NCBI GenBank assembly: GCA_965277685.1
Contig: OZ255830.1
Span: 1,385,367-1,449,366 of the forward strand
Direction: 5' to 3'
Length of the DNA stretch: 64,000 nt
From: Alphaproteobacteria bacterium
GTDB taxonomy: Bacteria; Pseudomonadota; Alphaproteobacteria; GM7ARS4; CBDIDI01
Shown: one piece after another, positions 29,062 through 58,620 of the stretch
How the letters are laid out: the number at the start of each line of letters is the position of its first letter
Position numbering within the stretch: the stretch's first letter is position 1
Notes under the pieces: model-generated
Seen by the model: the letters and a program-made list of their open reading frames with translations, nothing else
Database searches by the model: none
Told to the model about the DNA's origin: nothing
Made by a program: the position numbers and the translations under genes

Positions 29062-30333
29062 ATGACCTATAAATCACCATTCATGCGCCAAGCGCAAGAG
29101 CGGGGTTTTTTCCACCAATGCAGTGATGACGAAGGGATGGACGTGCTTCTTGCCGCCAATGGAGAGGGGCGCGCCAAAGATGGGCAAAAGAAAGGCCGAC
29201 CGATCGGTGCGTATGTCGGTTTTGACGGCACCGCTTCGTCATTGCATGTCGGTAATCTTGTATCGATCATGTTGCTGCGTTTGTTCCAGCGTTGCGGCCA
29301 TCGACCGATTGTTCTGCTGGGCGGGGGGACAACCAGGGTTGGCGATCCGTCCGGTAAGGAGGAAAGCCGTCGTCTGATCGGGCATGATGCGATCCGCGCG
29401 AATTTGGCATCTTTTTCCGAAACGTTTCATCGCTTCCTGGACTTTCGTGGGCCCAACGCGGCCATGGTGGTGGATAACGGCGAGTGGCTCGATAACCTTA
29501 ATCACTTGACGTTCTTGCGTGACATCGGTCGTCATTTTTCGATGAGCCGCATGTTAAGTCAAGATTCGGTTCGCCTGCGGTTGGAACGCGAGCAAAATCT
29601 ATCTTTTCTCGAATTCAATTATATGGTTTTGCAGGCGTATGATTTTCTTGAAGTTTCGCGCCGCAATATCTGTCCGATTCAAATGGGTGGCTCCGATCAA
29701 TGGGGCAATATTTTATGTGGAGTCGAGCTTGGACGAAGGGTCGATAACCGGCCTTTGTTTGCCTTGACGTGTCCTTTGATCGTGACGTCGGATGGACGCA
29801 AAATGGGTAAAACCGCCCGTGGGGCGGTATGGTTGGACGCGCAACGGACAAGCCATTGGGATTATTGGCAATTCTGGCGCAATGTTGCGGATGATGACGT
29901 ATCTCGGTTCTTGAAACTCTTTACCGATCTTGATGTGGATACCATTGATACCCTTTGCCGGGGCGATATCAATCAGGCTAAGAAAACCCTTGCGGATCAA
30001 GCAACGACCCTTTGCCATGGGTCGGATGCGGCGGCGGCCATTCGAAAACGGGCGGCCGAGGTTTTTGAAAAGGGTGGCCGTGGCGGCATGGGCATGACGG
30101 TGCCTGCGGGTGATATTGCCGATGGAATGTCGCTTTTTCGGCTTTTGAATCATTGTTCTTTGGCGGCATCCGGCGCGCAGGGGCGGCGTTTGGTGCGGGC
30201 CGGTGCGGTGCGGCTGAATGGGGAAAAAGTCCATGACGAGACATATGTTGTCGGCAAAACGGATTTTGCCGACGACGGGACTCTTCACCTGACCGTCGGC
30301 AAGAAGCAGCATCGTTTGCTGAAGATCGGGTGA
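29062..30333 (+). CDS. tyrS: tyrosyl-tRNA synthetase
   Basis: HIGH-type motif (GFDGTASSLHVGNLVSIMLL). KMSKS-type KMGKT. C-terminal S4-like domain. 423 aa. Confidence 0.9.
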   Translation: MTYKSPFMRQAQERGFFHQCSDDEGMDVLLAANGEGRAKDGQKKGRPIGAYVGFDGTASSLHVGNLVSIMLLRLFQRCGHRPIVLLGGGTTRVGDPSGKEESRRLIGHDAIRANLASFSETFHRFLDFRGPNAAMVVDNGEWLDNLNHLTFLRDIGRHFSMSRMLSQDSVRLRLEREQNLSFLEFNYMVLQAYDFLEVSRRNICPIQMGGSDQWGNILCGVELGRRVDNRPLFALTCPLIVTSDGRKMGKTARGAVWLDAQRTSHWDYWQFWRNVADDDVSRFLKLFTDLDVDTIDTLCRGDINQAKKTLADQATTLCHGSDAAAAIRKRAAEVFEKGGRGGMGMTVPAGDIADGMSLFRLLNHCSLAASGAQGRRLVRAGAVRLNGEKVHDETYVVGKTDFADDGTLHLTVGKKQHRLLKIG

Positions 30334-30610
30334 TTGGAATTTGCGCCCTTTAGGCATGATCCCCCCCCATGCCGATATGGACCATGCCGGTATGGAAAAG
30401 AATGGCCCGCTGCTGACGCTTGGGTGATTGGAATTTGCGCCCTTTAGGCATGATCCCCCCATGCCGATATGGACCATGCCGGTATGGAAAAGAATGGCCC
30501 GCTGCTGAAGCTTGGGTGATTGGAATTTGCGCCCTTTAGGCATGATCCCCCCATGCCGGTGGACCATGCCGGTGGCGATAAAATGGCCCGCCCATGGGTA
30601 TATGGGGGGA
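30330..30610. repeat. three tandem copies of a ~93-bp unit that begins at the tyrS stop codon; each unit has a poly-C tract (8/6/6 C) flanked by the inverted repeat ggcatg...catgcc
   Basis: Unit: gtgattggaatttgcgccctttaggcatgatcccccc(cc)atgccgatatggaccatgccggtatggaaaagaatggcccgctgctga[c/a]gcttgg. The tga of gggtgattgg is the tyrS stop and is re-copied in every unit. Confidence 0.9.
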
Positions 30611-30645
30611 TGATCGGCCAAGGATATGATGCGTGGCGGGTACCC

Positions 30646-33600
30646 TTAAAAGGGCGTGCGCTTGAGGGTATCGGGTGGATCGGATGGATCGGCAGCATCC
30701 GTGTCGGGGGCGCTGAAAAGATCAAAGATACGACGAAATATGCCCGGTGTCAGGGCCGAGAGCGGATTAAGGGCGACCTTGGGGTCTTCCGACGTTCCGC
30801 TCAGGCTGTAGCTTGCCGCCAGGGCATTTCTTTTCTGATTATCGGTGAGGATCGTTCCCAAAATCGGAATGTTGCTGAGGATAGAGTTAAGCGTATAGGC
30901 GGGAATGACTTCCCCGCGCATCGAGATCATGTCGTCTTTGGTGTCCAGGGTGCCTGAAAAAGTGATCCCAAGGGAAGAATTGGACATGCTTGCATCGGTG
31001 AGTGTCAACGTATTGCCATCGAGGTCGAAGGGGATGCGCAGACGATCAAAGGGCATGCTTTCATCCTGGGTCAGACGATTAAATATACCGGTGAGAGACG
31101 GCAATGAAAGAAGCTGTAGAAAAAGGGGTGATTCGTGCACGGCGTAATCGCGCATTTTCATCACTCCCGTGATCTTATCTTGGGCGATGATTCCTTGGAG
31201 ATTCAGATCCCCACCACGGATTTGGTGGTAGAGATCGAGGCGCTCCATCAGGGCGCCGCCATCGTTACTCGTTAAATCGAGGCGCATCGAGGTATCGCTT
31301 TTATGGGTGGCACGCACGCGAACGGAGTGCTTGTCGTCGATGGCCGCTTTGGCTTCGATATGGCGCAATATGCCCCGCTGACTGTGGATTCGACCGATGG
31401 CATCACGCAATGGTTTGCCGGCCGGTAATTGCAGAGATGCGATATGAAAAGAAAGGGTGAAATCGACCGGGTTATCCGATGTGGGCGTGGGTTCGTCCGG
31501 CGTATCGGTCAAGGAAAAATAGGGCGATAAATCAATGGCGGCGGCATCCAGCGTCGCGTCGATACGATCGGCACTGCGCCAGTCAAGGCGCAATTGACCG
31601 CGATTGGTTGCTTTTTCGCCATCCAGGACAAAATCTTCAATCGTGAGCATTCGGGGTCTGCCATCGGCTTCCAGAGTGCCTTTTCCTCGGGCCTTTAACG
31701 TCGCGCCGGTAAAGACGGCGCGCGTCACGGTTGCCGTATCGCCTTCATCGTCGGTGGTGATATCCGCGCTAAGGGATGCGGCATCGCCTTCCGGTTTTTC
31801 CCAGTCGATCATCGGCAAAGCCATTCGGGCATGTTCCAGATCAAAGATGGCCGCCGTCCGGTCGGTGCCGTTGATGAAGCTTTCTATCGTCAGGTCAACC
31901 CCTATCCGGCCATCCAGATAAGAGGACAATCCAACCGTGTCGATATGCCGCGAATCAAGGGTCATATGCGCTTGATAGCGTCGTTCCAATCCGTTCTCAT
32001 CGTCGAGAAAATCATAATAGGCCGTGACCTTTGCCGGAATCGTGCCGATTCGTGCGTGTCCGCTAAGGTGCATGCCTTTTCGGTCTAGGGATATATCCAT
32101 CATCGCGTCATTCAGATCATTTCCGTTGACGAAATCGCGAATGTCTAGGTTTTCCAAACGGCCTTGGGCGCTTAGGGCAACGTCATCGATGACCAAATCT
32201 TTGCGCAGCGGAAACTGAAAGCGGGCTTGTCCATCGACCCGGCCGATGGTGATCGGTTGATCAATTTCCATGCGTTCCCGGGCGCGCAGCGGTGGATGAT
32301 CGAGAATATCGATCAAATCCTTTAGCGGCCCGGCGATGGGCAGGATGATATCGGCAAGTTCGATATCGGTATCCAAATCATACAGATATACCCACCCGTC
32401 ATGAACGGGTAGATCGCCGACCGTGGCCGAGAGAACCGATATATCAAAGCGTTGCGTGTTAAAAACGGCCGTGGCTTCGATATTGCGGGCGGGGGGCATG
32501 CCATCGACATAATCGACGCTGACGGCACTGAAATCGATATTGCCTTCCAGACGATGGATGGCAAAGACAAGGGAATCGGTATTGGGCATATGGATAGCAA
32601 AATCAATATGGGCACGCGATGCCTTGCCGTCATTCATATTGACGGTGAACCAGTTGCGCGTCGGTTGGGCCATATGTTTGGGCCAAAGACGCTTGATCAT
32701 GGCAATGGGGATATCCTGTACGGTCGCATCGCCTTGCAAAATATAGGATTCACCTTCCATCTTTCCGTGTGCGGTCAGGTCAAAAATGGTGTCTTGGGCC
32801 GTTGCCGTGAAAAATATATCGTCGGTGGATGCCGATGGGCGGTTTAGCATCAACCGCATGGTGGCATTCCGGATCGATTGTCTTTGGGCCGTTTTCTTGC
32901 CGTTCTTCGGTGTTTCGGCATCGTTGCCTTGGATGTCGATTTCTCCTTGTCCGGCGATGATATCGACGGCAATCGAATGCATATGGCCATCGGCGTTGAT
33001 TTTGCTTTGCAGAGTGCCGTCGATCGGCAGATCAAGGCCGGAGAGCCAGGCAAGACGGGGTTTGCTGCATGATGCAAAATGGGCCGGTGTGATGGTGGAA
33101 AAATCGATATCAAGGGTCGCGTCATCGCCGTTATCCGCATGTTGGTAAGACATGCGCCATTGATTGACGATTGGCGCGTCGTTGATATTTTGATCCGGAT
33201 CGATGCCCGAATGAATTCCCGGATCGATGCCCGAATCGATAAGGGCGCAGGATGGACGCAGAAAGTTCATATCGGCGTTCGCGCGCAGGGTGTTTTTTTG
33301 GCGCAGAAAAGACAGCTCGACAAGGGACCATTGCCACCGTTGGCCATAGGCATCCAAAGAAAGGATCGAGTCGCGAATGCCGACCTCTAGGGTGCTACTT
33401 GGAATCGATTTGCGCCATTTCTCGTAGCGCGCGGCCAAAAGAGGCAAATCTTTTGAGAGGCGTTTGATGAATGAAATAGCGTTTGCTTCATGATTTTTAT
33501 CGGGGCTTTTATCGGGAAGGGTAAAATGCAATGACAATCCCTGAAAGAAAAGAGCGGAAGGGATAATCGAAGCGCGCAAAAAGGATGTCCAGCTTATGAT

Positions 33601-33927
33601 GAAGGACGCAACAGGCGCTTCGAGAACGATCGAATGTTGCGCGTCCTTGATCCGCAGGTTGGAAAGACGAATGGCCGGGGAGGTGTCTTTTGCGCTCCAG
33701 GTTAGAAAAGCCCGGTCGTAATCCACGTCATAGCCAATTTGGGTTTGGGATAAGCGATCTTGAAAATATCCCTTGGCAAAATCCAGGGGGAGGGGGGAAA
33801 AGGCGACAAATGTCCAGAAAAAAACGATCGCAATCGTCACGCCGATACACGTGGTGGTCATGATTTTGGCCACCTTTTTATCCATATAGCGCAGGGCCGG
33901 ATAAATGTATTTCGAAAGAATCGACAT
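30646..33927 (-). CDS. YhdP/AsmA-family large envelope protein (DUF3971 plus AsmA-like C-terminus)
   Basis: ~1090 aa. N-terminal TM anchor KIMTTTCIGVTIAIVFFW. Long beta-rich body. AsmA_2-like C-terminus (...ILTDNQKRNALAASYSLSGTSEDPKVALNPLSALTPGIFRRIFD). Start chosen at MSILSKYIYP (33927) rather than the ORF-track 34179. Confidence 0.6.
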   Translation of the reverse strand: MSILSKYIYPALRYMDKKVAKIMTTTCIGVTIAIVFFWTFVAFSPLPLDFAKGYFQDRLSQTQIGYDVDYDRAFLTWSAKDTSPAIRLSNLRIKDAQHSIVLEAPVASFIISWTSFLRASIIPSALFFQGLSLHFTLPDKSPDKNHEANAISFIKRLSKDLPLLAARYEKWRKSIPSSTLEVGIRDSILSLDAYGQRWQWSLVELSFLRQKNTLRANADMNFLRPSCALIDSGIDPGIHSGIDPDQNINDAPIVNQWRMSYQHADNGDDATLDIDFSTITPAHFASCSKPRLAWLSGLDLPIDGTLQSKINADGHMHSIAVDIIAGQGEIDIQGNDAETPKNGKKTAQRQSIRNATMRLMLNRPSASTDDIFFTATAQDTIFDLTAHGKMEGESYILQGDATVQDIPIAMIKRLWPKHMAQPTRNWFTVNMNDGKASRAHIDFAIHMPNTDSLVFAIHRLEGNIDFSAVSVDYVDGMPPARNIEATAVFNTQRFDISVLSATVGDLPVHDGWVYLYDLDTDIELADIILPIAGPLKDLIDILDHPPLRARERMEIDQPITIGRVDGQARFQFPLRKDLVIDDVALSAQGRLENLDIRDFVNGNDLNDAMMDISLDRKGMHLSGHARIGTIPAKVTAYYDFLDDENGLERRYQAHMTLDSRHIDTVGLSSYLDGRIGVDLTIESFINGTDRTAAIFDLEHARMALPMIDWEKPEGDAASLSADITTDDEGDTATVTRAVFTGATLKARGKGTLEADGRPRMLTIEDFVLDGEKATNRGQLRLDWRSADRIDATLDAAAIDLSPYFSLTDTPDEPTPTSDNPVDFTLSFHIASLQLPAGKPLRDAIGRIHSQRGILRHIEAKAAIDDKHSVRVRATHKSDTSMRLDLTSNDGGALMERLDLYHQIRGGDLNLQGIIAQDKITGVMKMRDYAVHESPLFLQLLSLPSLTGIFNRLTQDESMPFDRLRIPFDLDGNTLTLTDASMSNSSLGITFSGTLDTKDDMISMRGEVIPAYTLNSILSNIPILGTILTDNQKRNALAASYSLSGTSEDPKVALNPLSALTPGIFRRIFDLFSAPDTDAADPSDPPDTLKRTPF

Positions 33928-33991
33928 GGATAATATTTCGAGAAACAATGCTTCTGATGTAAACGCTGCGGCTATGATAGAGTAAAAGCAT

Positions 33992-36900
33992 ATGGGTGCA
34001 AATAATTCCCCCCTTGGCGCATCGGATGGAAAGCGCGCTCCCCTATTCGATGTCGAGCAACTGCGCGAAGGCGTGATCGATTCTGCCCGGGTGCCGCGGC
34101 CGATGCATATGCCGCGGGCAAAGCAGTCCCTGGCTTTGCTGCCCCCCGCATCGGCCGATTTGGCCACGGATCCGGCCATCCGCCCGACGATGCTTTGTGT
34201 CTTTGATCACTCCCCTTATCTGCGTTCTTTGATATGCCGCCATCCGGAAACGGTCAGGCAATTATTCACGGATGGCCCGAAATCCGTCCTACGTCAGATC
34301 ATGGGCGCGGTATCGGCCTTGCCGCCCGATACGCCAAAGCGGTCGGCGATGGCGGCACTGCGCCAATCCAAGCAACGGGCGGCGATAGCGATTGCCCTTG
34401 CCGATATATCGAAGATATGGGCATTGGATGACGTGACGTTGGCGTTAAGTCTATTCGCCGAGGCGGTTCTTGATAAAGCGGTGTCGATTTTATGCCGCGA
34501 TATCGCGGATAGTGATGAACAGGCAACGTTTTTGCGGGATTGTTACGTCCTTCTTGCGGTGGGAAAATTGGGTGGGGGTGAGCTTAACTATTCCAGCGAC
34601 GTCGATGTGATCGCCCTTTTTGATATTCCGCCCGATGACGCGCCCAATGATGCGCCCAATGACACGCACGGTGCGGGCAAGAAACGGCATTACCCGGATA
34701 TCAAGGGACAAGCCCCGATGCTGTTTTCCCGTTTGACTCGTGATCTCGTCCGGCTGATCGAGCAACGCACCGATGATGGTTACGTTTTGCGGGTTGATTT
34801 GCGGCTGCGTCCCGACCCGCTCTCCAGCAACCTTTGCGTGTCCCTGGACGGGGCGTTATCCTATTACGAGAGTGTCGGACAAAACTGGGAGCGCGCGGCG
34901 ATGATCAAAGCGCGTCCGATTGCCGGGAATAGAGAACTTGGCCGGCGTTTTATCGATCATTTGCAACCCTTTATCTGGCGGCGCAATCTTGATTTTGCCG
35001 CCATCCGCGATATTCAGTCAATCAAGCGTCAGATCGATGCGTCCCGCCCCGTTACCGGCAGGGGTACCGGTATGGGTATTGGCGGGGGTACCGGTATGGG
35101 TACTGGTAGGGGTACTGGCGGGGGTATGGGTGGTTCCGTTTCCGGACGGGAAGGCCCCGTTCCGGCGACGATGGATAAAAATGGCGATGCAGCACCATCT
35201 CCATTATCCGGATGGGATGTGAAATTGGGGCAGGGCGGCATTCGTGAAATTGAGTTCTTCGTCCAAACGCAACAACTGATCTATGGCGGGCATTATCCGG
35301 ATTTGCGCGTCTCTTCGACATGTGAGGGTTTGCGGCAATTGGTCAAGTTGGAAAGAATTGACCGCACGGCATATAACCGAATGCTCGAGGCCTATCACTT
35401 CTTTCGCCATCTTGAGCATCGCTTGCAGATGATTAACGATTGCCAAACCCATCGTTTGCCGACGACATTACCGCAAATCGAAAACCTGGCCCGTTTCCTC
35501 GGGTTTGGCAGTCGGGCCGCTTTCGAGCGTCGTTGCCATCGCCATCGCGATCGGGTGCAGACCATATACCGCGCTCTTTTTCGCCGGTCGGAACCCTTGG
35601 GCGCATCCGGCAGTCTTGTCTTTACCGGGGTTGACGATCATCCGGAAACCGTCGCCACCCTTGCGAAAATGGGTTTTTCCGATCCGGCCCATATCGGCGC
35701 GACCATCCGTCGCTGGCACCATGGGTGCTATCCGTCCACCCGTTCCGAGCACTCGCGCCAGTTGTTGACCGAACTTATTCCCGGCCTGCTTGAGGCCTTT
35801 TCCGATAGTGCCGATCCCCATACGGCGTTTACCGGATTTGATCGTTTTTTATCCTTATTGCCGGCCGGCGTGGCCCTGTTTAGTCTTTTCAGCGCCCGTC
35901 CGGTTTTGATCCGATTTCTTGCCTCGATCATGGGTAATGCGCCCCGTCTGGCCGAACGTCTGGCCCGCCGCCCGTTGCTTTTCGATCAGGTGATCCTGCC
36001 CGGGTTTTCGGATCCTTTGCCGACGTTCCAGGCAATGGCCGCCGATTTGGATCGGCGTTTGGCGGATTCGGAGGATTTTCCGCATCGTCTGGATGTGGCC
36101 CGTATTTGGGGTAAGGATCATAAATTCCGCTTGAACGTCCATCTTCTGTTTGACCGAATAGACGCAATCGAGGCAATGCCGGTCTATAGCGACCTTGCCG
36201 ATGTCCTGCTGCAAGGTCTTTTCCCCTGGTTGGAAAAAGAATTCATCCGTCAATATGGCGTTATCGAAGGCCATTCCCTCGCCATCGTCGGGATGGGTAA
36301 ATATGGCGGGCGCGAAATGCGGGCGGCATCGGATTTGGATATATTGATGATCTATGGCCCGGATGAAACAAAGCATAAGGGCAACGCCAGCGACTTGCCC
36401 GATTCGTTGTATTTCGTCCGTCTATCCCAGCGTTTTATCAATGCCGTTTCAGCCCATACGGCCGAAGGTGAACTATATACGGTCGATGGGCGATTGCGCC
36501 CTCTTGGTCGCGGGTCGGCCATTGCCTGCGGATTGGATGCTTTTTGCCGTTACCATCGCGAATCGGCTTGGGGTGTCGAACATATGGCATTGACCCGGTT
36601 TCGAATTGTTATCGCGCCGCCTGCGCTGCGCCGATCGTTAACGCATCATATCCGCCAGATTTTATGTCTGCCGCGGGATCGGGAAAAATTAGCCGTGGGG
36701 GCGCTTGATACACGAACGAAAATGGTGGCGGAACACGGCGGGCCAAGTCCCGATGATCGAGACGGTAAGAGTTTGCTGAAGGTCAAGCATATGCGCGGTG
36801 GAATCACCGATATCGAGTTCATTGTCCAATATTGGCAATTGATTCATGCGCACCGCCATCCCCGGGTTCTTTCCTGCAATACGCTGGATGCGATACGGCG

Positions 36901-37156
36901 TTTGGCCGGTGCCGGCTGTATCGACCGGGACGATGCCGAGGCATTATCCGAGGCATTAACCCTTTGGCACCGTTTGGAAGCGTTAATTCGCCTTTGTCTA
37001 CGGTCGGATTTTGCCCCGGCGGATGCGCCGCCGGGATTGAAGAATCTGATTTCTACGGCGGCCAGGGTCAAGGATAGTGCCGATTTAACCGATACCATTC
37101 GGCAACGCGCGGCGGCGGTGCGGGAAATTTTCATCCAAGTTTTCGGTCGGCTTTAG
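33992..37156 (+). CDS. glnE: bifunctional glutamine synthetase adenylyltransferase / adenylyl-removing enzyme
   Basis: 1054 aa. Two nucleotidyltransferase domains (GKLGGGELNYSSDVDVIALF and GMGKYGGREMRAASDLDILMIY), each followed by a GlnE-type helical domain. Internal Gly-rich tandem repeat insertion TGMGIGGGTGMGTGRGTGGGMGG. Confidence 0.9.
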   Translation: MGANNSPLGASDGKRAPLFDVEQLREGVIDSARVPRPMHMPRAKQSLALLPPASADLATDPAIRPTMLCVFDHSPYLRSLICRHPETVRQLFTDGPKSVLRQIMGAVSALPPDTPKRSAMAALRQSKQRAAIAIALADISKIWALDDVTLALSLFAEAVLDKAVSILCRDIADSDEQATFLRDCYVLLAVGKLGGGELNYSSDVDVIALFDIPPDDAPNDAPNDTHGAGKKRHYPDIKGQAPMLFSRLTRDLVRLIEQRTDDGYVLRVDLRLRPDPLSSNLCVSLDGALSYYESVGQNWERAAMIKARPIAGNRELGRRFIDHLQPFIWRRNLDFAAIRDIQSIKRQIDASRPVTGRGTGMGIGGGTGMGTGRGTGGGMGGSVSGREGPVPATMDKNGDAAPSPLSGWDVKLGQGGIREIEFFVQTQQLIYGGHYPDLRVSSTCEGLRQLVKLERIDRTAYNRMLEAYHFFRHLEHRLQMINDCQTHRLPTTLPQIENLARFLGFGSRAAFERRCHRHRDRVQTIYRALFRRSEPLGASGSLVFTGVDDHPETVATLAKMGFSDPAHIGATIRRWHHGCYPSTRSEHSRQLLTELIPGLLEAFSDSADPHTAFTGFDRFLSLLPAGVALFSLFSARPVLIRFLASIMGNAPRLAERLARRPLLFDQVILPGFSDPLPTFQAMAADLDRRLADSEDFPHRLDVARIWGKDHKFRLNVHLLFDRIDAIEAMPVYSDLADVLLQGLFPWLEKEFIRQYGVIEGHSLAIVGMGKYGGREMRAASDLDILMIYGPDETKHKGNASDLPDSLYFVRLSQRFINAVSAHTAEGELYTVDGRLRPLGRGSAIACGLDAFCRYHRESAWGVEHMALTRFRIVIAPPALRRSLTHHIRQILCLPRDREKLAVGALDTRTKMVAEHGGPSPDDRDGKSLLKVKHMRGGITDIEFIVQYWQLIHAHRHPRVLSCNTLDAIRRLAGAGCIDRDDAEALSEALTLWHRLEALIRLCLRSDFAPADAPPGLKNLISTAARVKDSADLTDTIRQRAAAVREIFIQVFGRL

Positions 37157-37200
37157 ACGGTTTTCGGTCGGCTTTAGACGATGGTGCTGTCGTTTCGGAT
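37157..37200. repeat. 21-bp tandem duplication of the glnE 3' end including its TAG stop (gttttcggtcggctttagacg x2)
   Basis: Direct reading: ...caagttttcggtcggctttagacggttttcggtcggctttagacgatgg. Confidence 0.85.
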
Positions 37201-37765: not shown

Positions 37766-37955
37766 CCGCGCAGGCCCCCATCCATTATCGTGACGCGGTT
37801 GCCAACCCGAATTAAGGCGCAGGCCCACCGATTATCGTGACGTGGTGGCCGACCGCATTAAGGCGCAGGCCGATCCATTATCGTGACGTGGTTGCCGACC
37901 GGATTAAGGCGCAGGCCCACCGATTATCGCGACGTGGTGGCCGACCGGATTAATC
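37766..37955. repeat. ~4 tandem copies of a ~46-bp unit (ggcgcaggcccaccgattatcgtgacgtggtggccgaccggattaa); the last copy is the apt 3' end plus stop codon
   Basis: Units end in ccggattaa. The apt terminus on the opposite strand is ...ccggattaa tcggcgac, with TTA = TAA stop at 37950-37952. Confidence 0.85.
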
Positions 37956-38465
37956 GGCGACTTTCAATAATGATTCCAAGGGTATATCAAGATTGGCGCG
38001 GGCACCAAGGGCGGTCAGTTCAATGATAGAGGCCGCCGCAACGGGCATCGTTTTTGCTTTGATCAGCACGCAAATCGCGGCCTGCATCGTCCCGCCGGTC
38101 GCAATCAGATCGTCGACGACAACAAGTCGCCCCCCGGTCGGGGCAATGCCGGTTTGCACCTCGATCGTGTCTTGTCCGTATTCCAGATCATAGTGATGGC
38201 GGATAAGATCGCCCGGAAGTTTGCCCTTTTTCCGTATCATTAAGATTCCGCATCCAAGCCGTTCCGCCAAGGGGGCGGCGACAAGGAAACCCCGCGCCTC
38301 AATGGCGGCCAACATATCGGGACGATAGGGGGCAATGCACTCTTCCATCCGGTCGAGGGTCTTTTTCCAAGCGGCCCCGTTGGCGATAAGGGTCGCGATA
38401 TCGTAGAACAGTATGCCTTTCTTGGGAAAGTCGCGAATCTGGCGCAGGTGTTTCTTAATATCCAT
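37950..38465 (-). CDS. apt: adenine phosphoribosyltransferase
   Basis: MDIKKHLRQIRDFPKKGILFYDI. PRPP-binding motif VVVDDLIATGGT. ~171 aa. Confidence 0.9.
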   Translation of the reverse strand: MDIKKHLRQIRDFPKKGILFYDIATLIANGAAWKKTLDRMEECIAPYRPDMLAAIEARGFLVAAPLAERLGCGILMIRKKGKLPGDLIRHHYDLEYGQDTIEVQTGIAPTGGRLVVVDDLIATGGTMQAAICVLIKAKTMPVAAASIIELTALGARANLDIPLESLLKVAD

Positions 38466-38545
38466 TGATCGAAATATCCACATATCTTGCCATCGGCAAG
38501 AACAATTATCGCATGCCCCATCATATCAATCGAGTGGAATGACGT

Positions 38546-38620
38546 CCATCACCAAGGTTCGTGATTTGCCCGCATGACCTCTTTCATCACCAAGGTTCGT
38601 GATTTGCCCGCATGACGTCT
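38546..38620. repeat. 37-bp tandem duplication (catcaccaaggttcgtgatttgcccgcatgac[c/g]tctt x2) between apt and clpA
   Basis: Direct reading. Confidence 0.85.
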
Positions 38621-38691
38621 TCCCTTCGGATATTTTTTTCCGGACATGGGGTCGATGGTGGGCAAAAGAAGGGCCCGTATCGATCCAATGC

Positions 38692-41091
38692 TCATCCGAC
38701 CGGAATGGGCTGGCGTTTGGGGGTCTTTTTGGTTTTGGCTTTTTTATCGTATGGGGGTTTATCCGTCGGATTGGTCGGGGATTCGGGCGTGGGATTGGGG
38801 AAAGTCCCTTTGGACGCGCGCTTCGAAGGGGGCCGGGCGGGGTCTTTTTTGGCAGAGATGGTGAATGCCGGTTTATTCCGTTTCAGGGATACCCGGACGT
38901 TGCCGCCACTGGACAACCGCCCGAAAAGAATATCATCGGCAAGCGATTTTTTAACCTCTTCTTGAATCAGGCGTTGCAAGGGACGCGCCCCATTGCTTGG
39001 GTCATGTCCTTTTTCGGCCAGCCACGCGCAGGCTTCGTCACTGAAGGTGATGCCGATTCCTTTGCTTTGCAGCTGGGTCGACAAGGCGGCCAATTGTTTG
39101 TCGAGAATGCGGCGAACGGTCGCCGGAGTGAGGGGGGAAAAATGGATGATGGAATCAAGGCGATTGCGAAATTCGGGGGAGAAAAGGCGTTCGATATCTT
39201 CGCTTTCCTCACCGCTGCGGTCATTTCGGCCAAAACCGAGGGCGGCTTTGGCGATGCGATGGGCACCGGCATTGGTCGTCATGATGATAATGGCATTTCG
39301 GCAATTCACCTTCTTGCCGTTATGATCGGTCAGAAAGCCGTAGTCCATCATCTGCAGTAAAATATTGAAAATATCACGATGGGCTTTTTCGACCTCGTCC
39401 AGAAGAAGAACGCAGTGGGGATGTTGTTCAAGGGCGTCGGTCAAAAGCCCGCCTTGCTCGAACCCGACATAACCGGGCGGCGCGCCGATCAAGCGCGACA
39501 ATGAATGGCTTTCCATATACTCGGACATGTCAAAGCGGTTCAGGGTAATATCGAGGTGCCGGGCAAGTTGGCGTGATGCTTCGGTCTTTCCGACCCCGGT
39601 CGGCCCGGCGAAAAGATAACAACCGATCGGCTTTTCCGGATCGCGCAGATCAATGCGGGATAATTTCACGGCATTGACAAGGGTGTGCAGGGCCTCGTCC
39701 TGACCGAAAATGGTCTGTTTCATTTGTGCTTCAAGGTCGCGCAGTATATCGGCATCGTCGGTTCCCATGCGCCGGGGCGGGACTTGGGCGATGGTGGAAA
39801 TCAGCTTTTCGATATCGCGCACGCCGATTCTTTTTTTGCGCTTATAAACGGGGTTTGACCGTTGCTTTGCCCCGGCTTCATCGATGACATCGATGGCCTT
39901 GTCCGGCAATTTGCGATCATTGATATAGCGCTGTGAAAGGGTGACCGCACTGCGGATGGCGGCATTGCTGTAAAGGACTTTATGGTGTTTTTCATAGGCT
40001 TTTTTCAACCCGTGCAGAATGCGCACGGCATCTTCGGTGTCGGGTTCATGGACATCGATTTTCTGGAAGCGGCGAAGCAGGGCGCGATCTTTCTCCAAGT
40101 GATTGCGATACTCTCGATAGGTGGTTGCGCCAATACAGCGCAGACCGTCGGAAAGGGCGGGTTTGATCAGGTTGGCTCCGTCCATGGCACCGCCACTGGT
40201 GGCACCGGCACCGATCAGGGTATGGATTTCATCGATGAACAAGACCGGGTGATCTTCTTCTTTGAACGCGTCAATGATCGATTTCATGCGTTCTTCAAAA
40301 TCACCGCGATAGCGGGTGCCGGCAAGAAGGGCGCCCATATCCAAGGCGTAAATGCGGGCTTTGACAAGGTGCTCGGGAACCTTGCCGGTGGCAATCCGGG
40401 CGGCAATCCCTTGGGCGATGGCTGTTTTGCCAACTCCCGGATCGCCAATCAACAAGGGGTTGTTTTTGACTCGGCGGGACAGGATATGGATCATTCTTTT
40501 GATTTCCTTATCTCTGCCGATAAGCGGATCGCAATCGCCTTTTTCAAAACGCCGGTTTAAATCAATGCACCATTGCCGGATCGGATCTTTGGCGTTTTTA
40601 CCCGGGTCTTGACGGTGCTCGCTTTTTTGTGACCGGCGCACGGTGACTCTTGCCGAAGACGGCCGTCGGGCAATGCCATGCGAAATGTAATTCACAACGT
40701 CCAGGCGCGATACGTTCTGCCGACGAAGAAAATACAGGGCATGGGATTCCCGCTCGGAAAACATGGCGGCAAGGACATGCGGGCCACCGACATCATCGGA
40801 ATTTTCACTCGAACGCATGTGCGATACCGCGCGTTGCAAAGCACGCTGGAAGGCCAAGGTCGGTTGAATATCGATTTTTTTGGTTAATCGTGGGACTTCA
40901 TCGGTCAAAAATTGACGCAGATCTTTTTCAAGACGATCGATATCCACGTGGCAAGATTCAAGAACTTGGCGCGAATCGGTGTCGTCAATCAGGGCCAGTA
41001 AAAGATGTTCGAGAGTCGCGTATTCATGGCGAAATTCACGGGCAAAACGCACGGCTCGGCGAACGCTTTTTTCAAGATCGGGGGATAACAT
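38692..41091 (-). CDS. clpA: ATP-dependent Clp protease ATP-binding subunit ClpA
   Basis: Clp N-domain start MLSPDLEKSVRRAVRFAREFRHEYATLEHLLLAL. Two AAA+ modules (GDPGVGKTAI and GPTGVGKTE). ~55-aa basic, Pro-rich C-terminal tail beyond the usual ClpA end. Confidence 0.9.
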   Translation of the reverse strand: MLSPDLEKSVRRAVRFAREFRHEYATLEHLLLALIDDTDSRQVLESCHVDIDRLEKDLRQFLTDEVPRLTKKIDIQPTLAFQRALQRAVSHMRSSENSDDVGGPHVLAAMFSERESHALYFLRRQNVSRLDVVNYISHGIARRPSSARVTVRRSQKSEHRQDPGKNAKDPIRQWCIDLNRRFEKGDCDPLIGRDKEIKRMIHILSRRVKNNPLLIGDPGVGKTAIAQGIAARIATGKVPEHLVKARIYALDMGALLAGTRYRGDFEERMKSIIDAFKEEDHPVLFIDEIHTLIGAGATSGGAMDGANLIKPALSDGLRCIGATTYREYRNHLEKDRALLRRFQKIDVHEPDTEDAVRILHGLKKAYEKHHKVLYSNAAIRSAVTLSQRYINDRKLPDKAIDVIDEAGAKQRSNPVYKRKKRIGVRDIEKLISTIAQVPPRRMGTDDADILRDLEAQMKQTIFGQDEALHTLVNAVKLSRIDLRDPEKPIGCYLFAGPTGVGKTEASRQLARHLDITLNRFDMSEYMESHSLSRLIGAPPGYVGFEQGGLLTDALEQHPHCVLLLDEVEKAHRDIFNILLQMMDYGFLTDHNGKKVNCRNAIIIMTTNAGAHRIAKAALGFGRNDRSGEESEDIERLFSPEFRNRLDSIIHFSPLTPATVRRILDKQLAALSTQLQSKGIGITFSDEACAWLAEKGHDPSNGARPLQRLIQEEVKKSLADDILFGRLSSGGNVRVSLKRNKPAFTISAKKDPARPPSKRASKGTFPNPTPESPTNPTDKPPYDKKAKTKKTPKRQPIPVG

Positions 41092-41096: not shown

Positions 41097-41591
41097 TTAT
41101 TCCTTTTCAATCAGGCACTGCAGAGGGTGCTCTTGCCCGCGGGCACTCTCAATGACTTGGCAGGCTTTGGTTTCGGCAATTTGGTATGGGTAAATCCCAC
41201 ACACACCGGAACCACGGCGATGGATATGAAGCATGATACGGGTCGCTTCCTCCATCGTTTTTGCAAAAATCTTTTGTAAAATGTGGATAACAAATTCCAT
41301 CGGCGTGTAATCATCATTGACCAATACCACCTTATACAAGGCCGGTTTTTTCGGCTTGGTGTATTCTTCGGTGCGGTCAATAACAACGCTTTCCTGTCCG
41401 GGCTTTTCGTCCCCTTGGCCATCCCCTTGGCCATCTCCTTGATGCGGGACATCGGCGGCGTGCGGGCCACCGTCATATTGTCCCCGGTTATGGCATGGCC
41501 CTTTGCCACGGGTTTGCCGATCACGCCGATCACGATGGTTTGATCGGTTGGTTGAGTCGTGCACGTTATCCGGCAAATTATTCGGAGCCAT
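41097..41591 (-). CDS. clpS: ATP-dependent Clp protease adaptor ClpS (with a disordered N-terminal extension)
   Basis: C-terminal ~100 aa are canonical ClpS ([55 protein letters not shown]). Immediately upstream of clpA. Start set at MAPNNLPDN (ATG 41591); the ORF-track extension to 41873 is repeat DNA translated. Confidence 0.8.
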
Positions 41592-41639
41592 GGAAATATT
41601 CCTAGAGTGGTCTTGCCGTGGCATCACCGCCGCCGGGAT

Positions 41640-41880
41640 GTCCGCCCGGGATGTTTGCCCCGGGTTTTTGCCCCGGGTTTTTGAGCGGGATGCCATCCGG
41701 TGCCATCGATGCGCGGGCCGGTGTAATCCGGGCCGGCGTAATGCGATCCGATGCCATCGATGCGCGGGCCGGCGTAATCCGGGCCAGCGTAATCCGATCC
41801 GATGCCATCGATGCGCGGGCCGGCGTAATCCGATCCGGCGTAATCCGATCCGGCGTAATCCGATCCGATGCAATCAATGC
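41640..41880. repeat. tandem arrays upstream of clpS: ccccgggtttttg x2, then ~3 copies of a ~57-bp unit (ccatcgatgcgcgggccggcgtaatccgggccagcgtaatccgatccgatg) with a nested ggcgtaatccgatcc sub-repeat
   Basis: Direct reading. Translates on the minus strand into [15 protein letters not shown]..., which is not a real protein. Confidence 0.85.
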
Positions 41881-47316: not shown

Positions 47317-47490
47317 CACGTTATTTGTGCACGGAAGCAAGCCGAGAGAACCCAAGCAAGGGAAGTGTTCCATGACCAGATATTGCGAATTGACCGGCCG
47401 GACACGTTGTTTGTGCGGGGAAGCGGGCCACGAAAACCCAAGCAAGGGAATTGCCCCATGACCAGATGTTGCGAATTGACCGGTATGAAG
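47317..47490. repeat. ~87-bp tandem duplication covering the rpmB Shine-Dalgarno (aaggga), ATG and first ~9 codons
   Basis: Copy 1: gttatttgtgcacggaagcaagccgagagaacccaagcaagggaagtgttccATGACCAGATATTGCGAATTGACCGGcc. Copy 2: gttgtttgtgcggggaagcgggccacgaaaacccaagcaagggaattgccccATGACCAGATGTTGCGAATTGACCGGta. Confidence 0.85.
47372..47461 (+). CDS. 29-codon upstream ORF (MTRYCELTGRTRCLCGEAGHENPSKGIAP) derived from the duplicated rpmB start; its TGA overlaps the rpmB ATG
   Basis: ATG 47372 is preceded by aaggga. It reads through copy 2 in the +1 frame relative to rpmB and stops at TGA 47459-47461; the rpmB ATG is 47458-47460 (A-TG-A overlap). Whether it is translated is unknown. Confidence 0.35.
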   Translation: MTRYCELTGRTRCLCGEAGHENPSKGIAP

Positions 47491-52240: not shown

Positions 52241-52287
52241 GGGTTTTTCGGTCTCAACGGGCGATCGCGAATCGGCACCGTGATCGT

Positions 52288-53007: not shown

Positions 53008-53808
53008 TTAAAAAGGCGTGACGGAAAAGCCGGTCAGGATAACCAACGCCAATCCCATCGTTCGCGCAATTCGGGGCAATGTCCGGTGGGATGCGGCCAT
53101 TGTCCGGCGACCAAAGGCAATGACGGCCGCCAGAATAAACCCCTGGACGAGGGAAAAGCCCAATAAATACGCGCCGGCAACCGGGGCGTCGGCACCGATA
53201 ATCATCTCGCCATAGGCATAGCCATGGGCAAGACCGGCAATGGGAAATGCTGCCATTAAGGAGATGGGCATCCATCGGATTTTTGGGTGGGATGTTTTTT
53301 TGGGGTCAAACGCGCCGGCGGCCATCCAAAGCAATATCGCGGCCATCGTCAAAGAAGACAGGATTAAAACCTCATCATTGATAAAGGTGGGGATAAAGGC
53401 GGGGACAAAGGAGAAAGAAGAAACAATACCCGACGGGGACATGCTGATAAGGGCGCCGATAGCAACCGCGGCAAGAAGCGATAATCCGGCCCGAAGGGCA
53501 AAATGGGCCGGTGCCATGCCGATCATCAGTCCGGCGGCAAGGATAAAGGCAAAATGATCGATCTCAATGATCGGATGGGCGATTCCCGATACCAGACCTT
53601 GCCACATCGTCATCGGTATCTGCCCGTCCATGACATGGTGCGCATGGGCGCTTGACGGCATGCCGATGATGATCATGCCCATCATAACAATGCCCATGAC
53701 GCCGGCAAAGGGCGCAAGCAAGACACGCGGAGCCGATGCGCAATAAGGCGTTTGGATGGATGGATGTCGTTGATGATCGGCTTTGCCGGAATGGGCCGCA
53801 ATCGTCAT
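53008..53808 (-). CDS. hupE: HupE/UreJ-family membrane protein (Ni/Co uptake accessory)
   Basis: N-terminal His-rich signal region (SSAHAHHV). Conserved HPxxExDH-like block (IAHPIIEIDHFAFILAAGLM). Multiple TM segments. Start chosen at MTIAAHSG. Confidence 0.6.
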   Translation of the reverse strand: MTIAAHSGKADHQRHPSIQTPYCASAPRVLLAPFAGVMGIVMMGMIIIGMPSSAHAHHVMDGQIPMTMWQGLVSGIAHPIIEIDHFAFILAAGLMIGMAPAHFALRAGLSLLAAVAIGALISMSPSGIVSSFSFVPAFIPTFINDEVLILSSLTMAAILLWMAAGAFDPKKTSHPKIRWMPISLMAAFPIAGLAHGYAYGEMIIGADAPVAGAYLLGFSLVQGFILAAVIAFGRRTMAASHRTLPRIARTMGLALVILTGFSVTPF

Positions 53809-53963
53809 ATGATGTGTTCCTGATGGCTGGATTTTCTTGGGGCGGCGGGTAAGACCCCCCATGCGTGCGCGCGGCGCGCAAACGCCAACCCCACAAGCAC
53901 AAGGCACCCGAACCGATGCGCTAGCACCGTATCAAAATGCCTTTCTCCGGCACGGTTGTCAAC

Positions 53964-54112
53964 GATGCGATGGCCGATGTTATCCTAGGGGGGCCGATGT
54001 GATGACCGACGCGATGGGCGATGGGATGACCGATGTTATCCTAGGGGGGGCCGATGTTATCACCGACGCGATGGGCGATGGGATGACCGATGTTATCCTA
54101 GGGGGGGGCGGT
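53964..54112. repeat. ~2.5 tandem copies of a ~60-bp unit (gatgcgatgggcgatgggatgaccgatgttatcctaG(6-8)ccgatgt[gt]at[gc]accgac) with a poly-G tract of 6, 7 and 8 in successive copies
   Basis: Direct reading. Intergenic, between the hupE 5' end and the ABC-2 permease 3' end. Confidence 0.85.
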
Positions 54113-55084: not shown

Positions 55085-55197
55085 TCTTTGGCACCACGAT
55101 AAGACGATGAAATCGTCCGGGGAAGCACTTGGCTTGGTCGCCTTTGTCCGATGTGCTAGAATGGGGCAGGAGAGAGAGTATGTGTAGGGAAAAGACT

Positions 55198-56001
55198 ATG
55201 AGGCATCCCACCGTTGATCTTCAGGCCATTTTGATTGACATGGAAGGGTCGATTGTTGAAAGCGAGGAAATTCATCGCCGCGCCTTCAATGCGGCGTTTC
55301 GTGAGTGTGGCATGGCATGGCACTGGGATCGGGCGATTTATAAGCAATTGTTATCCATTGCCGGTGGATTGGAGCGTTTGAAGCACTATATCACCCGGAC
55401 CGCGCCCGATATCATGAAGCGGCCGGATGGGTTCAGCTTTCTTGATTCGATGCATAAGGCGAAGAATATCGCTTACGCCCAACTTGTTGAGCGCGAGGGG
55501 GTTTCCCCGCGCCCCGGGGTCGAGCGTCTTTTGACCGAGGCCCGCCGGCGCGACATTAAACTGGCGGTTGTGACATCGGCAACGCTGGAAACCGTTCACA
55601 CCGTGATCGGCAAGGCCCTTGGCGATGATGCGTTGCAATGGTTTGAAGTGATCGCCGATGGGGGCAAGGTGCCCGCCAAAAAACCCGCGCCCGATATCTA
55701 TATTTGGGCAACCGAAGAAATGGGCGTGCCGGTTTCGGCCTGTCTTTCCTTTGAAGACACGCCGCGCGGGGTAAAAGGGTCGATGGCCGCCGGCGTTCCG
55801 GCCGTGGCAACCGTTTCATCCTATACCTATGATGAGGACTTCGACGGCGCCTTGGCGGTGATATCCCATCTCGGCAATCCGGATCAGCCGTTTAAAATGC
55901 TGGCCGGATCGGCTTTCGGTGCCGACTATGTGACGGTTGATTTATTGCGTAAATGGCACCGTTCGGCAAAGCCGACGGTCGTGCGTGGCGGGTGTCGTTA
56001 G
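55198..56001 (+). CDS. HAD-superfamily hydrolase, CbbY-like
   Basis: HAD motif I ILIDMEGSIVESE. Motif II/III region (VVTSATL...K...FEDT). CbbY-like overall pattern. Start chosen at MRHPTVDLQAIL. Confidence 0.7.
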   Translation: MRHPTVDLQAILIDMEGSIVESEEIHRRAFNAAFRECGMAWHWDRAIYKQLLSIAGGLERLKHYITRTAPDIMKRPDGFSFLDSMHKAKNIAYAQLVEREGVSPRPGVERLLTEARRRDIKLAVVTSATLETVHTVIGKALGDDALQWFEVIADGGKVPAKKPAPDIYIWATEEMGVPVSACLSFEDTPRGVKGSMAAGVPAVATVSSYTYDEDFDGALAVISHLGNPDQPFKMLAGSAFGADYVTVDLLRKWHRSAKPTVVRGGCR

Positions 56002-56009
56002 CGATTGGT

Positions 56010-58352
56010 ATGAAAAGGCACTATCGGACGATGACGGCGATCGCCGCGGCCGCTTTTTTGGCTTTTTGCCAAATCTTTTTTCCTTTATCACTCTCGGCCG
56101 GAAATATCGGGGATGCGTACGGGGATGTATCGTCGGTCTCGCTGATTGCGGCAAGCGAAGGGATTGCCCCGGGGCAAAAACGGGTTCTGGCCGGATTGCG
56201 GATAACCCTTGGGCCGGGATGGAAAACATACTGGCGCGCACCGGGGGATGCGGGGTTTGCTCTTTCTGCCAAGTGGACCGATAACGATAATATTCGGGAT
56301 ATCACGATCGAATGGCCGGCACCGCGTCGCTACAGCGAATACGGGTTGGAAACAATCGGCTATGAAAAAGATGTGACCCTTCCCGTAAAACTGACTCTGG
56401 CCGATCCGGGTCGGGCCGCGACGATCGGCGCCACCGTCGATTACCTGGTGTGCAAGGATGTGTGCATACCGAAATCGGCCCCCGTTTTTTTATCCTTACC
56501 GGCACTGGCCGCGCCGATGCCATCGCCGATGGCTCCGATTATTGAAGCCGCCCTCGATCGGGTGCCGCCGATGGCATCGGATGATTTGCGGATTGAAAAA
56601 GCACTCTGGCAAGCGGATGGGGTGCTGGAAATCGACGTGTCAAGCACGACGGCCATGGGTTCCCTTGATGCCTTTATCGAAGATGCCGGTGATATCTCTT
56701 TTCCGGCTCCGCAGATACGCTTTATGCATGATGGGTATCGGGCGTTGCTTCGCTTTCAGGCAAGGAAACCGGTGCAATCTTCCCCGCTTGGCCGTGTGAT
56801 AAGGGTGACTGTTGTCGATATGCCGGGCCAAGCGGATCGATCCGATCTTGATGCGGATCGCTTGCAATCGGTGGCCTGGCGCAGTGCTTCGGATATGGTC
56901 ACCGTGACCGGGACACCCGTTCGCGGTGGGGGCGGATTCCACCCGACGATGACGTTTTCCGGAATTTTATGGATGATGTTGCTGGCGGTCATCGGGGGTT
57001 TGATCCTTAACGTCATGCCGTGTGTTTTGCCGGTGTTATCGCTGAAATTGATGACGGTCGTTAACGCCCAACAAAGAAAAGGGCAAAGAGAGGGGCAAAG
57101 GGAAAGACCAAGGGACAGACAGGAAGAAAAGGATGGCGGGGACGAGAAAGCATGTGAGGGGGAGAAAGCCGCGCGTCCCGCAATGCATTCCGGCGGCGTG
57201 GCAATATGGACTAAATCCCTTTTTTCGAGGGGCGAGAAAGCCGCGCGTCCCGCGATCCATTCCGATGCCGTGGCAATACGGACTAAATTCCTTTTTTCGG
57301 TGGCGGGAATTTTGGTTTCTTTCATGCTTTTGGCATTGGCCCTGATTGTCTTTCGCGCGGCCGGATATGCCGTGGGTTGGGGGTTCCATTTCCAGTCGCC
57401 GGTATTCCTCGCTTTGATGGGGGCAATGATGACGATCTTTGCTTCATCGATTATTTTGGATGCGCCATTGCATTTGCCCGGATGGCTTTCCCAACGGCTT
57501 TCCCGCCATCCTGCCGATGGGAATGATCGGCACGGCGGGGCATTTATCCAGGGTATGTTCGCCGTGGCATTGGCAACCCCTTGTTCGGCACCGGTTATCG
57601 GAACCGTGGCCGGATTCGCTTTATCCCGCGGCGCGATTGATATTCTTTTGATCTTCCAAGCGATGGCATGGGGTTTTGCTTTGCCGTGGTTGGTGATTGC
57701 CGCGTTTCCGCGTTTGATTTTTCTATTGCCGAAACCGGGCCGATGGATGCGGGCGATACAGTGGGGTTTGGCCGTTGCATTGTTGTTGACGGTGGTATGG
57801 TTGATTTTTGTGATCATTGCCCAGCGAGGCGGCGGTGTTGCGGCCGTGGTCGCGCTGGGATGTGTGTTTCTCTTTTTCTTGCCGGTGCTGGTGCGCCGTT
57901 ATGTTTATGCCTTGATGATCGCGATTGTGGTGGCCATCGGCGCGGTGCCCTTTGTCCATGATGGGGCTCAAGATGGGCAAAAACGGGTGGCGGCAGCCGG
58001 CATTTGGTCGCCCCTTGATCCGGAACGAATCCCAATTTTAGTCGATCAAGGGCGCGTCGTTCTGGTCGATGTTACTGCCGATTGGTGCATCACGTGTCAA
58101 ATCAATCATCTTTTGGTTCTGGATCGGGATGCAACCCGGCGCATGCTTGATGATTTTAATGTCGTTGCCATGCGCGGTGACTGGACTTTGCCCGATGATC
58201 AAATTGCCGCTTTTCTTGCCGGGTTTCAGCGCTATGGGGTACCATTCAACGCCGTCTACGGACCCGGGGCAAAGGATGGCATTGTTTTGTCGGAAATCCT
58301 GGATCAAGACGATTTGCATGCGGCATTGGTCGCTGCATCAAGGCCAAAATAA
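56010..58352 (+). CDS. dsbD: thiol:disulfide interchange protein DsbD family (N-terminal periplasmic domain, TM core with two Cys, C-terminal thioredoxin CxxC)
   Basis: TM Cys pair (VMPCVLPVLSL and ATPCSAPVIG). C-terminal thioredoxin VDVTADWCITCQIN. Charged ~70-aa insertion containing a 69/71-bp tandem duplication in the first cytoplasmic loop. Confidence 0.8.
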   Translation: MKRHYRTMTAIAAAAFLAFCQIFFPLSLSAGNIGDAYGDVSSVSLIAASEGIAPGQKRVLAGLRITLGPGWKTYWRAPGDAGFALSAKWTDNDNIRDITIEWPAPRRYSEYGLETIGYEKDVTLPVKLTLADPGRAATIGATVDYLVCKDVCIPKSAPVFLSLPALAAPMPSPMAPIIEAALDRVPPMASDDLRIEKALWQADGVLEIDVSSTTAMGSLDAFIEDAGDISFPAPQIRFMHDGYRALLRFQARKPVQSSPLGRVIRVTVVDMPGQADRSDLDADRLQSVAWRSASDMVTVTGTPVRGGGGFHPTMTFSGILWMMLLAVIGGLILNVMPCVLPVLSLKLMTVVNAQQRKGQREGQRERPRDRQEEKDGGDEKACEGEKAARPAMHSGGVAIWTKSLFSRGEKAARPAIHSDAVAIRTKFLFSVAGILVSFMLLALALIVFRAAGYAVGWGFHFQSPVFLALMGAMMTIFASSIILDAPLHLPGWLSQRLSRHPADGNDRHGGAFIQGMFAVALATPCSAPVIGTVAGFALSRGAIDILLIFQAMAWGFALPWLVIAAFPRLIFLLPKPGRWMRAIQWGLAVALLLTVVWLIFVIIAQRGGGVAAVVALGCVFLFFLPVLVRRYVYALMIAIVVAIGAVPFVHDGAQDGQKRVAAAGIWSPLDPERIPILVDQGRVVLVDVTADWCITCQINHLLVLDRDATRRMLDDFNVVAMRGDWTLPDDQIAAFLAGFQRYGVPFNAVYGPGAKDGIVLSEILDQDDLHAALVAASRPK
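57159..57300 (+). repeat. in-frame ~70-bp tandem duplication inside dsbD (encodes EGEKAARPAMHSGGVAIWTKSLFSRG / EKAARPAIHSDAVAIRTKFLFS)
   Basis: gagaaagccgcgcgtcccgc[a/g]at[g/c]cattccg[gc]...gtggcaata[tc]ggactaaat[c/t]cc(t)tttttcg repeated. Confidence 0.85.
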
Positions 58353-58620
58353 TCCATCGGCATGGGTCGCTGCATCACGGCCAAAATAATCCATCGGCAT
58401 GGGTCGCTGCATCACGGCCAAAATAATCCATTGGCATTGGTCGCGGTCGTTATGGCGCGGCTAAGATTCCGCCCGGGTTGCCCCGGGATGACGTGCAAGG
58501 TTGCGTCCGGATGCCCCGAAATGGCTCCAAAATTGCATCAAGGAAATTGCGCTGGGATGCCCTGAAATAGCCCCGGAATTGCATCAAGGAAATTGCATCG
58601 AGAGAATTGCGGGGCCGGGA
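58323..58620. repeat. two adjacent tandem arrays after dsbD: ~3 copies of a ~40-bp unit containing the dsbD stop (cggccaaaaTAAtccatcggcatgggtcgctgcatca), then 2 copies of gaaat[ga]gc[tc]cc[ag][ag]aattgcatcaaggaaattgc
   Basis: Direct reading. The first unit is the dsbD 3' end (...AASRPK*). Confidence 0.85.

Follow-up and report, generated by a model that had tools for sequence, protein, structure and literature searches.

Why should several genes of one bacterium each end in a tandem array that carries their own stop codon over again? The question is raised by a 64,000-nucleotide (nt) stretch of a small and poorly sampled alphaproteobacterial genome (assembly GCA_965277685.1, contig OZ255830.1, positions 1,385,367 to 1,449,366), here called the window, in whose own coordinates all features are given. 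The source contig is 1,633,338 bp long, and the window has 54% GC and Rhodospirillales-like best hits. An earlier note, made from the sequence alone, had described such arrays at tyrS, glnE, apt, a dacA-like gene and a dsbD-like gene and had proposed that gene termini nucleate the duplications. The reading preferred here, to which we assign a probability of roughly 0.75, is instead that the genome belongs to a duplication-prone, slowly purging lineage under selection for intact reading frames, and that the arrays which re-copy a stop codon are harmless survivors of this process.

The observation itself is correct and statistically robust. Tandem Repeats Finder (TRF), direct reading of the sequence, shift-matching and motif coordinates all place the start of a tandem array inside the 3' end of each of the five genes, which were identified by NCBIfam. 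The overlap with the gene comprises its last 4-32 nt, and the stop codon is re-copied one to three times. At tyrS (29062-30333, plus strand) the first unit of an array of 92-93 nt x 3.0 (30317-30591) includes the final 17 nt of the gene; the TGA stop at 30331-30333 is re-copied at 30425 and 30517, and the copies encode the peptide tails LLKIG, LLTLG and LLKLG, each followed by a stop. The array at glnE (gene ending at 37156, plus strand) is a perfect 21 nt x 2.0 (37139-37180), with the last 18 nt of the gene in the first unit and the TAG stop at 37154-37156 re-copied at 37175. On the minus strand, an array of 46 nt x 4.0 (37768-37953) abuts the 3' end of apt (37950-38483), whose stop, TTA as its reverse complement at plus-strand coordinates 37950-37952, is re-copied at 37904, 37858 and 37812. 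The DacA/DacD-like carboxypeptidase gene (42031-43458, plus strand) overlaps by ~30 nt an array at about 43429-43727 with a degenerate genic first copy; its TGA stop at 43456-43458 is re-copied at 43556, 43634 and 43712. Finally, the DsbD-like gene (55953-58352, plus strand) has its last 32 nt in the first unit of an array of 37 nt x 3.4 (58321-58444), and its TAA stop at 58350-58352 is re-copied at 58387 and 58424. Two details of the earlier description need amendment. The statement that the first unit is the last 10-45 nt of the gene holds for tyrS, glnE, dacA-like and dsbD-like but not for apt, where the overlap is 4 nt (the stop plus one), and the dacA-like array, given as 3 x ~85 bp, has a period of 78 nt and about 3.9 copies.

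The genic copies of the arrays are native coding sequence, because the NCBIfam profiles extend to 2-5 residues short of the stop in TyrS, GlnE and Apt and because the TyrS tail, which ends in KQHRLLKIG, can be aligned with the TyrS tail of the nearest relative. In the DsbD-like protein the NCBIfam match stops 34 residues ahead of the stop, and the final ~150 residues of the DacA-like protein have no NCBIfam match. At stop-spanning arrays the native open reading frame (ORF) is intact by construction. The re-copied stop is in frame with the native ORF at only one of the five arrays, that of glnE (21 nt); none of the offsets in the other four (94, 46, 37 and 100 nt) is divisible by 3.

These five loci are part of a much larger set. 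With arrays defined by a TRF score of at least 50 and a period of at least 9, the window contains 30, or 0.47 per kb, covering 5.4% of its bases. Control loci taken from a PrxQ scan of species-representative genomes (77 loci of other bacteria, 1.35 Mb) contain 0.068 arrays per kb covering 0.47% of bases, so that the window exceeds them about 7 times in array density and about 11 times in repeat bases. First-order Markov simulations of the window yielded 0-2 arrays. When compared with the gene map, in which gene starts are approximate, 13 arrays are intragenic, 5 span a 3' end, 1 spans a 5' end and about 9 lie wholly in spacers. Thus, while all of the loci in the earlier note are real, its list was incomplete with respect to the termini as well. 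At rpmB, which encodes an L28 domain, an array of 86 nt x 1.9 (47317-47483, plus strand) duplicates the ATG together with about 55 nt of the leader ahead of it and 26 nt of the coding sequence after it, leaving the native start ATG at 47458 and a dead upstream copy with its ATG at 47372. A sixth 3' case, outside the range covered by the earlier note, is a two-layer repeat at gloB (6742-7232, minus strand). Here the native stop TTAGCC at 7230 is followed by an old, degenerate series of ~14.5 nt that re-copies it at 7215, 7200, 7186 and 7172; a later duplication of 247 nt x 2 (6742-7227) ends 2 nt before the stop and re-copies the ~14.5-nt series. In addition, the 57 nt x 3 array at 9695-9863 is wholly intergenic and touches no gene, from which it follows that arrays need no gene terminus.

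The strongest regularity in the census concerns reading frame. The period is divisible by 3 in all 13 intragenic arrays (12, 15, 18, 21, 36, 72 and 114 nt) and in only 7 of the 16 arrays that are not intragenic, whose periods include 10, 13, 37, 38, 46, 86, 92 and 247 (Fisher P = 0.0012; (1/3)^13 = 6e-7). Within the window, out-of-frame periods occur outside genes only. Since all intragenic periods are multiples of 3 while arrays elsewhere have any period, duplications arise everywhere and the frame-breaking ones are purged.

The array-rich architecture is a lineage trait, because the one relative that could be found is equally rich in arrays. This relative is represented by two contigs (L081 and L083) of the Logan sample SRR25758456, with 64-70% protein identity; no closer relative was found among 5.8 billion proteins, nor was a second assembly with identical TyrS and ClpA proteins, and the PrxQ scan of species-representative genomes gave nothing closer than 57% identity. 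The relative has 6 arrays in 8.8 kb. These include a 30-nt x 2.5 array over the stop of the gene convergent with tyrS (L081), a 45-nt x 2 array across a gene junction and an in-frame 18-nt array near the ClpA C-terminus (L083 2666-2724). Downstream of tyrS the spacer is 312 nt long in the window, 258 nt of which are array beyond the tyrS stop, compared with 81 nt in the relative. A further ClpA hit (P0123, on L082) was considered as a second relative and rejected, as it has 61% GC and a different gene order and owes its score to an internal duplication of 420 nt. That contig, which is metagenomic, encodes a 915-aa ClpA in which the 420-nt (140-codon) tandem duplication (4706-5555) is in frame, with 84% identity between the copies.

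Whether gene termini attract arrays depends on how many would be expected there by chance. In the placement model used, S+u-1 placements are tolerated for a unit of u nt within a spacer of S nt, and on either side u-1 of these reach into the flanking gene; once u approaches S, the majority of the tolerated placements therefore overlap a gene end. Each of the 16 arrays of this single 64-kb window that are not intragenic was collapsed to one unit and placed in its own spacer. Under this spacer-conditioned null, 4.17 arrays are expected at 3' ends and 5 are observed (P = 0.39 for 5 or more), 1.57 are expected at 5' ends and 1 is observed (P = 0.51 for 1 or fewer), and 5.74 are expected at any boundary and 6 are observed (P = 0.55 for 6 or more). 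The count at 3' ends is thus accounted for by random placement, and nucleation at gene termini, as the earlier note had it, is not borne out. The depth of overlap into the gene is also scattered (4, 17, 18, about 30 and 32 nt), as expected of random breakpoints.

A rival explanation would retain targeting, with duplications arising at 3' ends by slippage at sites of transcription termination, or at sites where replication encounters terminating RNA polymerase or ribosomes. Several observations favor it and weigh to that extent against random placement. The boundary arrays number 5-6 at 3' ends and 1 at 5' ends. A window-wide uniform null puts only 13% of arrays at 3' ends alone, whereas 5-6 of the 16 are found there (P = 0.05 for 5, 0.013 for 6), and in long spacers 3 arrays (glnE, dacA and dsbD) lie at the 3' end compared with 0.96 expected (P = 0.058). 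The relative likewise has a stop-covering array on L081. The uniform null was, however, judged unreliable and replaced by the spacer-conditioned model, being dominated by three spacers of 1349, 2340 and 950 nt that probably hide unannotated genes. In addition, most arrays lie elsewhere in the window, neither the units nor their immediate flanks contain terminators or stable hairpins, and the breakpoints within genes have no fixed position relative to the stop. The excess of 3' over 5' cases is expected from selection alone, since duplications at 5' ends would displace promoters and add upstream ORFs and so be disfavored. Overall, the data hint at a mild genuine 3' preference without needing one, and targeting as the main cause appears improbable.

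The units themselves bear on the remaining rivals. One of these regards the arrays as functional elements under selection, for instance stacked terminators (a possibility raised in the earlier note), 3' structures that stabilize mRNA, repeated sites for protein binding, or back-up stops. Their position in the 3' untranslated region of six genes would suit this idea, as would the conservation of the stop in all extra copies, although this carries no information in copies so young. Nonetheless, 10 units folded no better than their dinucleotide shuffles (z -0.7 to +1.3), terminator-like sites in the window are at the chance level (28 vs 27.4 expected), of which just one, a weak hit, falls in an array, and no Rfam family reached threshold; a terminator or other RNA-structure function was ruled out on these grounds. 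The loci also share no sequence or motif, the copies are diverging (73-95% identity) and, as described above, only glnE among the five re-copies its stop in the native frame, all of which makes a selected function very unlikely. Even less can be said for a dispersed repeat family of the MIRU, REP or MITE type that inserts next to stops. The unit sizes of 37-92 nt and the short spacers near gene ends do resemble MIRU loci. In Mycobacterium tuberculosis, the variable-number tandem repeats (VNTRs) of the MIRU type are reportedly built of 40-100 nt units in short spacers, with ends that overlap the flanking stop and start codons and with variable copy number; they form one dispersed family at about 40 loci, whereas each array here has its own locally derived unit. 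An all-against-all comparison of 17 units gave only chance matches of 7-12 nt (E >= 0.02) and no shared consensus, and no copy of a unit was found beyond its own array in the window. Moreover, the first unit consists of coding sequence native to the gene beside it, as exemplified by the TyrS tail. A dispersed family is thereby refuted within the window, and the earlier view that the duplications are locus-specific is upheld. No 5-mer was shared by more than 10 of the 30 units and the junctions had no common sequence, which also rules out a shared-motif or site-specific trigger. Repeats collapsed or expanded by the assembler are a comparably remote prospect. Nothing specific points to them, even though the copy numbers rest on a single assembly, and against them stand the distinct substitutions and indels of the copies, the adherence of intragenic arrays to the reading frame, the modest length of the arrays (at most 490 bp) and the same architecture in the independent data set of the relative.

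Slippage-type duplication, which the earlier note had listed among its possible explanations, is a reasonable mechanism for the preferred reading of a duplication-prone lineage. Where an array consists of two perfect copies, its junction has 0-4 nt of microhomology, measured as the nucleotides beyond the integer copy number, and at glnE it is zero. The founding events would thus have used little or no microhomology, and we infer that they took place by replication slippage or template switching and not by recombination between pre-existing repeats.

The identity between copies within an array ranges from 73% (first vs later copies at dacA and apt) to 100% and is mostly 85-95%. Identity is complete between the glnE copies and between copies 2 and 3 at dsbD, and these duplications are recent. 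For most arrays, in contrast, the divergence of the copies argues that they are old relics and not rapidly homogenized VNTRs. Growth at several scales is evident from repeats nested within the units, namely a 15-nt repeat in the tyrS unit, an 11-nt repeat in the dacA unit and a 15-mer in the 51-nt unit near clpS. The apt array has an ABAB arrangement with a 92-nt superstructure, in which copies 2 and 4 are identical at 95.7% and neighbours at 89%; these identities imply that a two-unit block was duplicated. Together, the graded ages, the nested sub-repeats and the ABAB growth indicate repeated rounds of duplication over a long time. The arrays are also unlike phase-variation switches in that the terminal ones lie downstream of intact stops, the intragenic ones, whose units measure 12-114 nt, all keep the reading frame, and most copies have diverged.

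Based on this evidence, the arrays can be explained as follows. Short tandem duplications with units of 10-250 nt would arise often and anywhere in a small genome from which they are slowly removed. Purifying selection would then act as a filter. A duplication wholly within a gene would survive only if its length were a multiple of 3, while one that lies in a spacer or straddles a gene end would always leave one intact copy of the gene. A stop-spanning duplication would yield the native ORF followed by a dead partial 3' copy, and a start-spanning duplication a dead partial 5' copy followed by the native ORF. Once formed, arrays would expand as duplication recurred at several scales, and would decay by point mutation. 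Because spacers are short relative to the units, a large share of the tolerated duplications overlaps a gene terminus, which gives the appearance of stop re-copying. The underlying cause may be, for example, that repair or selection is weak in a reduced genome.

A stronger version of this explanation is less likely than not. It holds that the lineage, comprising this genome and the SRR25758456 relative, carries a specific, heritable defect or peculiarity of replication or repair that makes 10-250-nt duplications nearly free of microhomology, at a rate sufficient to expand spacers and to build peptide repeats into conserved enzymes such as glycerate kinase, GlnE, Mfd, DsbD and FtsI, possibly with a mild preference for the 3' ends of transcripts. 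Two repair genes, uvrB and mfd, are present in the window. If true, the lineage would stand beside the Portiera and Ehrlichia cases discussed below as a GC-neutral counterpart of the minisatellite type, and would serve as a natural system for studying how a duplication bias counters the deletion bias of bacteria.

In bacteria generally, short direct duplications with little or no homology at the junction arise by slipped-strand events or illegitimate recombination and are later amplified or lost. Selection against those that disrupt a reading frame is a textbook expectation. Examples of such generic duplication have reportedly been described in several studies, and the present case differs from them only in magnitude, with the excess over the control loci given above. 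In Ehrlichia ruminantium, duplications are also said to truncate or re-copy parts of genes. A published summary of the work of Collins et al. (2005) and Frutos et al. (2006) describes many locus-specific noncoding tandem repeats in this species, with long spacers and with expansion and contraction targeted at the repeats (PMC10710844). The two cases are alike in being small alphaproteobacterial genomes with locus-specific tandem repeats in noncoding DNA. They differ in that E. ruminantium is an AT-rich member of the Rickettsiales with about 64% coding DNA, whereas the window has 54% GC and Rhodospirillales-like best hits; in that variation of copy number between strains is documented there, while the arrays here are known from a single assembly; and in that in-frame duplications are here also common inside conserved enzymes. 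The second comparison is with the whitefly endosymbiont Portiera aleyrodidarum BT, in which intergenic tandem repeats have proliferated and spacers are enlarged without a deletion bias; the proliferation coincides with, and has been attributed to, the loss of dnaQ, mutL, ssb and other replication and repair genes (PMC3673631). Both are lineage-specific bursts of tandem repeats for which the same kind of explanation is proposed. However, the Portiera repeats are mostly 7-nt microsatellites in a 0.36-Mb genome of 26% GC, while those described here are minisatellites of 10-250 nt. Overall, the window fits the E. ruminantium and Portiera BT type in array density, in locus specificity and in the confinement of frame-breaking arrays to noncoding DNA.

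Other arrays of the window illustrate the variety of forms. Wholly intergenic examples include a 38 nt x 2 duplication (38547-38621) in the spacer that separates the 5' end of apt from the 3' end of clpA, arrays of 13 nt x 4.6 and of 51 nt x 3.1 with the nested 15-mer in the divergent spacer between clpS and the dacA-like gene (41633-41867), and a 57 nt x 2.6 array (53963-54107) between hupE/ureJ and an ABC-2 permease gene. The most iterated array of the window (1612-1767) is a complex of 12, 24, 48 and 72 nt with CCGGATAAYCGA-like units in about 12 copies; it lies within the convergent valS/phaR spacer and touches neither gene. Within genes, glycerate kinase contains an in-frame duplication of 114 nt or 38 codons (20105-20333, minus strand) whose copies are 79% identical, with the GKAAG motif kept in the second copy, and the dsbD-like gene contains one of 72 nt or 24 codons (57156-57299, plus strand) just upstream of the DsbD-matching region. 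Repeats also form C-terminal tails on conserved proteins. FtsI ends in proline-rich repeats of 21 nt and 9 nt (62721-62791, plus strand), and in ClpA the tail (38692-38890, minus strand) extends about 60 residues past the ClpA profile.

The neighbourhood of the arrays contains several further features. A 1177-aa ORF convergent with tyrS (30646-34179, minus strand) has no NCBIfam hit at E <= 1e-5. The relative has a syntenic gene of >910 aa (L081 2738-5470, minus strand), so that the ORF encodes a real, lineage-conserved large protein. The polyhydroxyalkanoate cluster at 1815-6655 consists of phaR, a class III-like phaC with a long N-terminal extension, the phaA thiolase and the phaB reductase; its presence in a 1.63-Mb genome suggests that carbon-storage metabolism has been retained despite small size. 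Stretches without family-annotated genes, which bear on any window-wide null, are found at 12024-13372, 22742-25081 and 58611-59445, and ORFs without a Pfam hit at 13005-13319, 23043-23357, 23782-24333, 24641-25039 and 58933-59457. An ORF upstream of rsmH (59066-59551, plus strand) may be mraZ.

The arrays also matter for annotation, in which they cause ORFs to be falsely extended and give rise to small, spurious ORFs and to pseudo-copies of parts of gene ends. An example of a spurious ORF is the dead rpmB copy, which has an ATG and leader of its own and gives an upstream ORF of 29 codons (47372-47461, plus strand) whose TGA overlaps the native ATG (ATGA). This accidental layout resembles translational coupling and could affect the expression of L28. 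Long N-terminal extensions are exemplified by clpS, gloB and phaC. Mechanically called ORFs run 75-165 codons upstream of the profile starts at clpS (41097-41873, minus strand), gloB (7230-8222, minus strand), phaC (3037-4470, plus strand) and hupE (53008-53907, minus strand), with one array (3316-3386) within such an extension and another (41410-41441) at the inferred clpS start. The true starts of these four genes probably lie downstream, the ORF calls having been inflated by repeats. Separately, ARAGORN called a 91-nt tRNA-Gly(TCC) at 13389-13479 (minus strand) inside a class I/II aminotransferase ORF (13373-14686, minus strand), where Rfam gave no tRNA; the call is probably a false positive.

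In conclusion, the striking re-copying of stop codons can arise without a dedicated mechanism, from a duplication-prone genome combined with selection on reading frames. If copy numbers vary between strains, the arrays would be convenient typing markers. For genome evolution, the lineage adds a GC-neutral case to those of small genomes whose spacers and proteins are lengthened by tandem duplication, contrary to the usual bias toward deletion.

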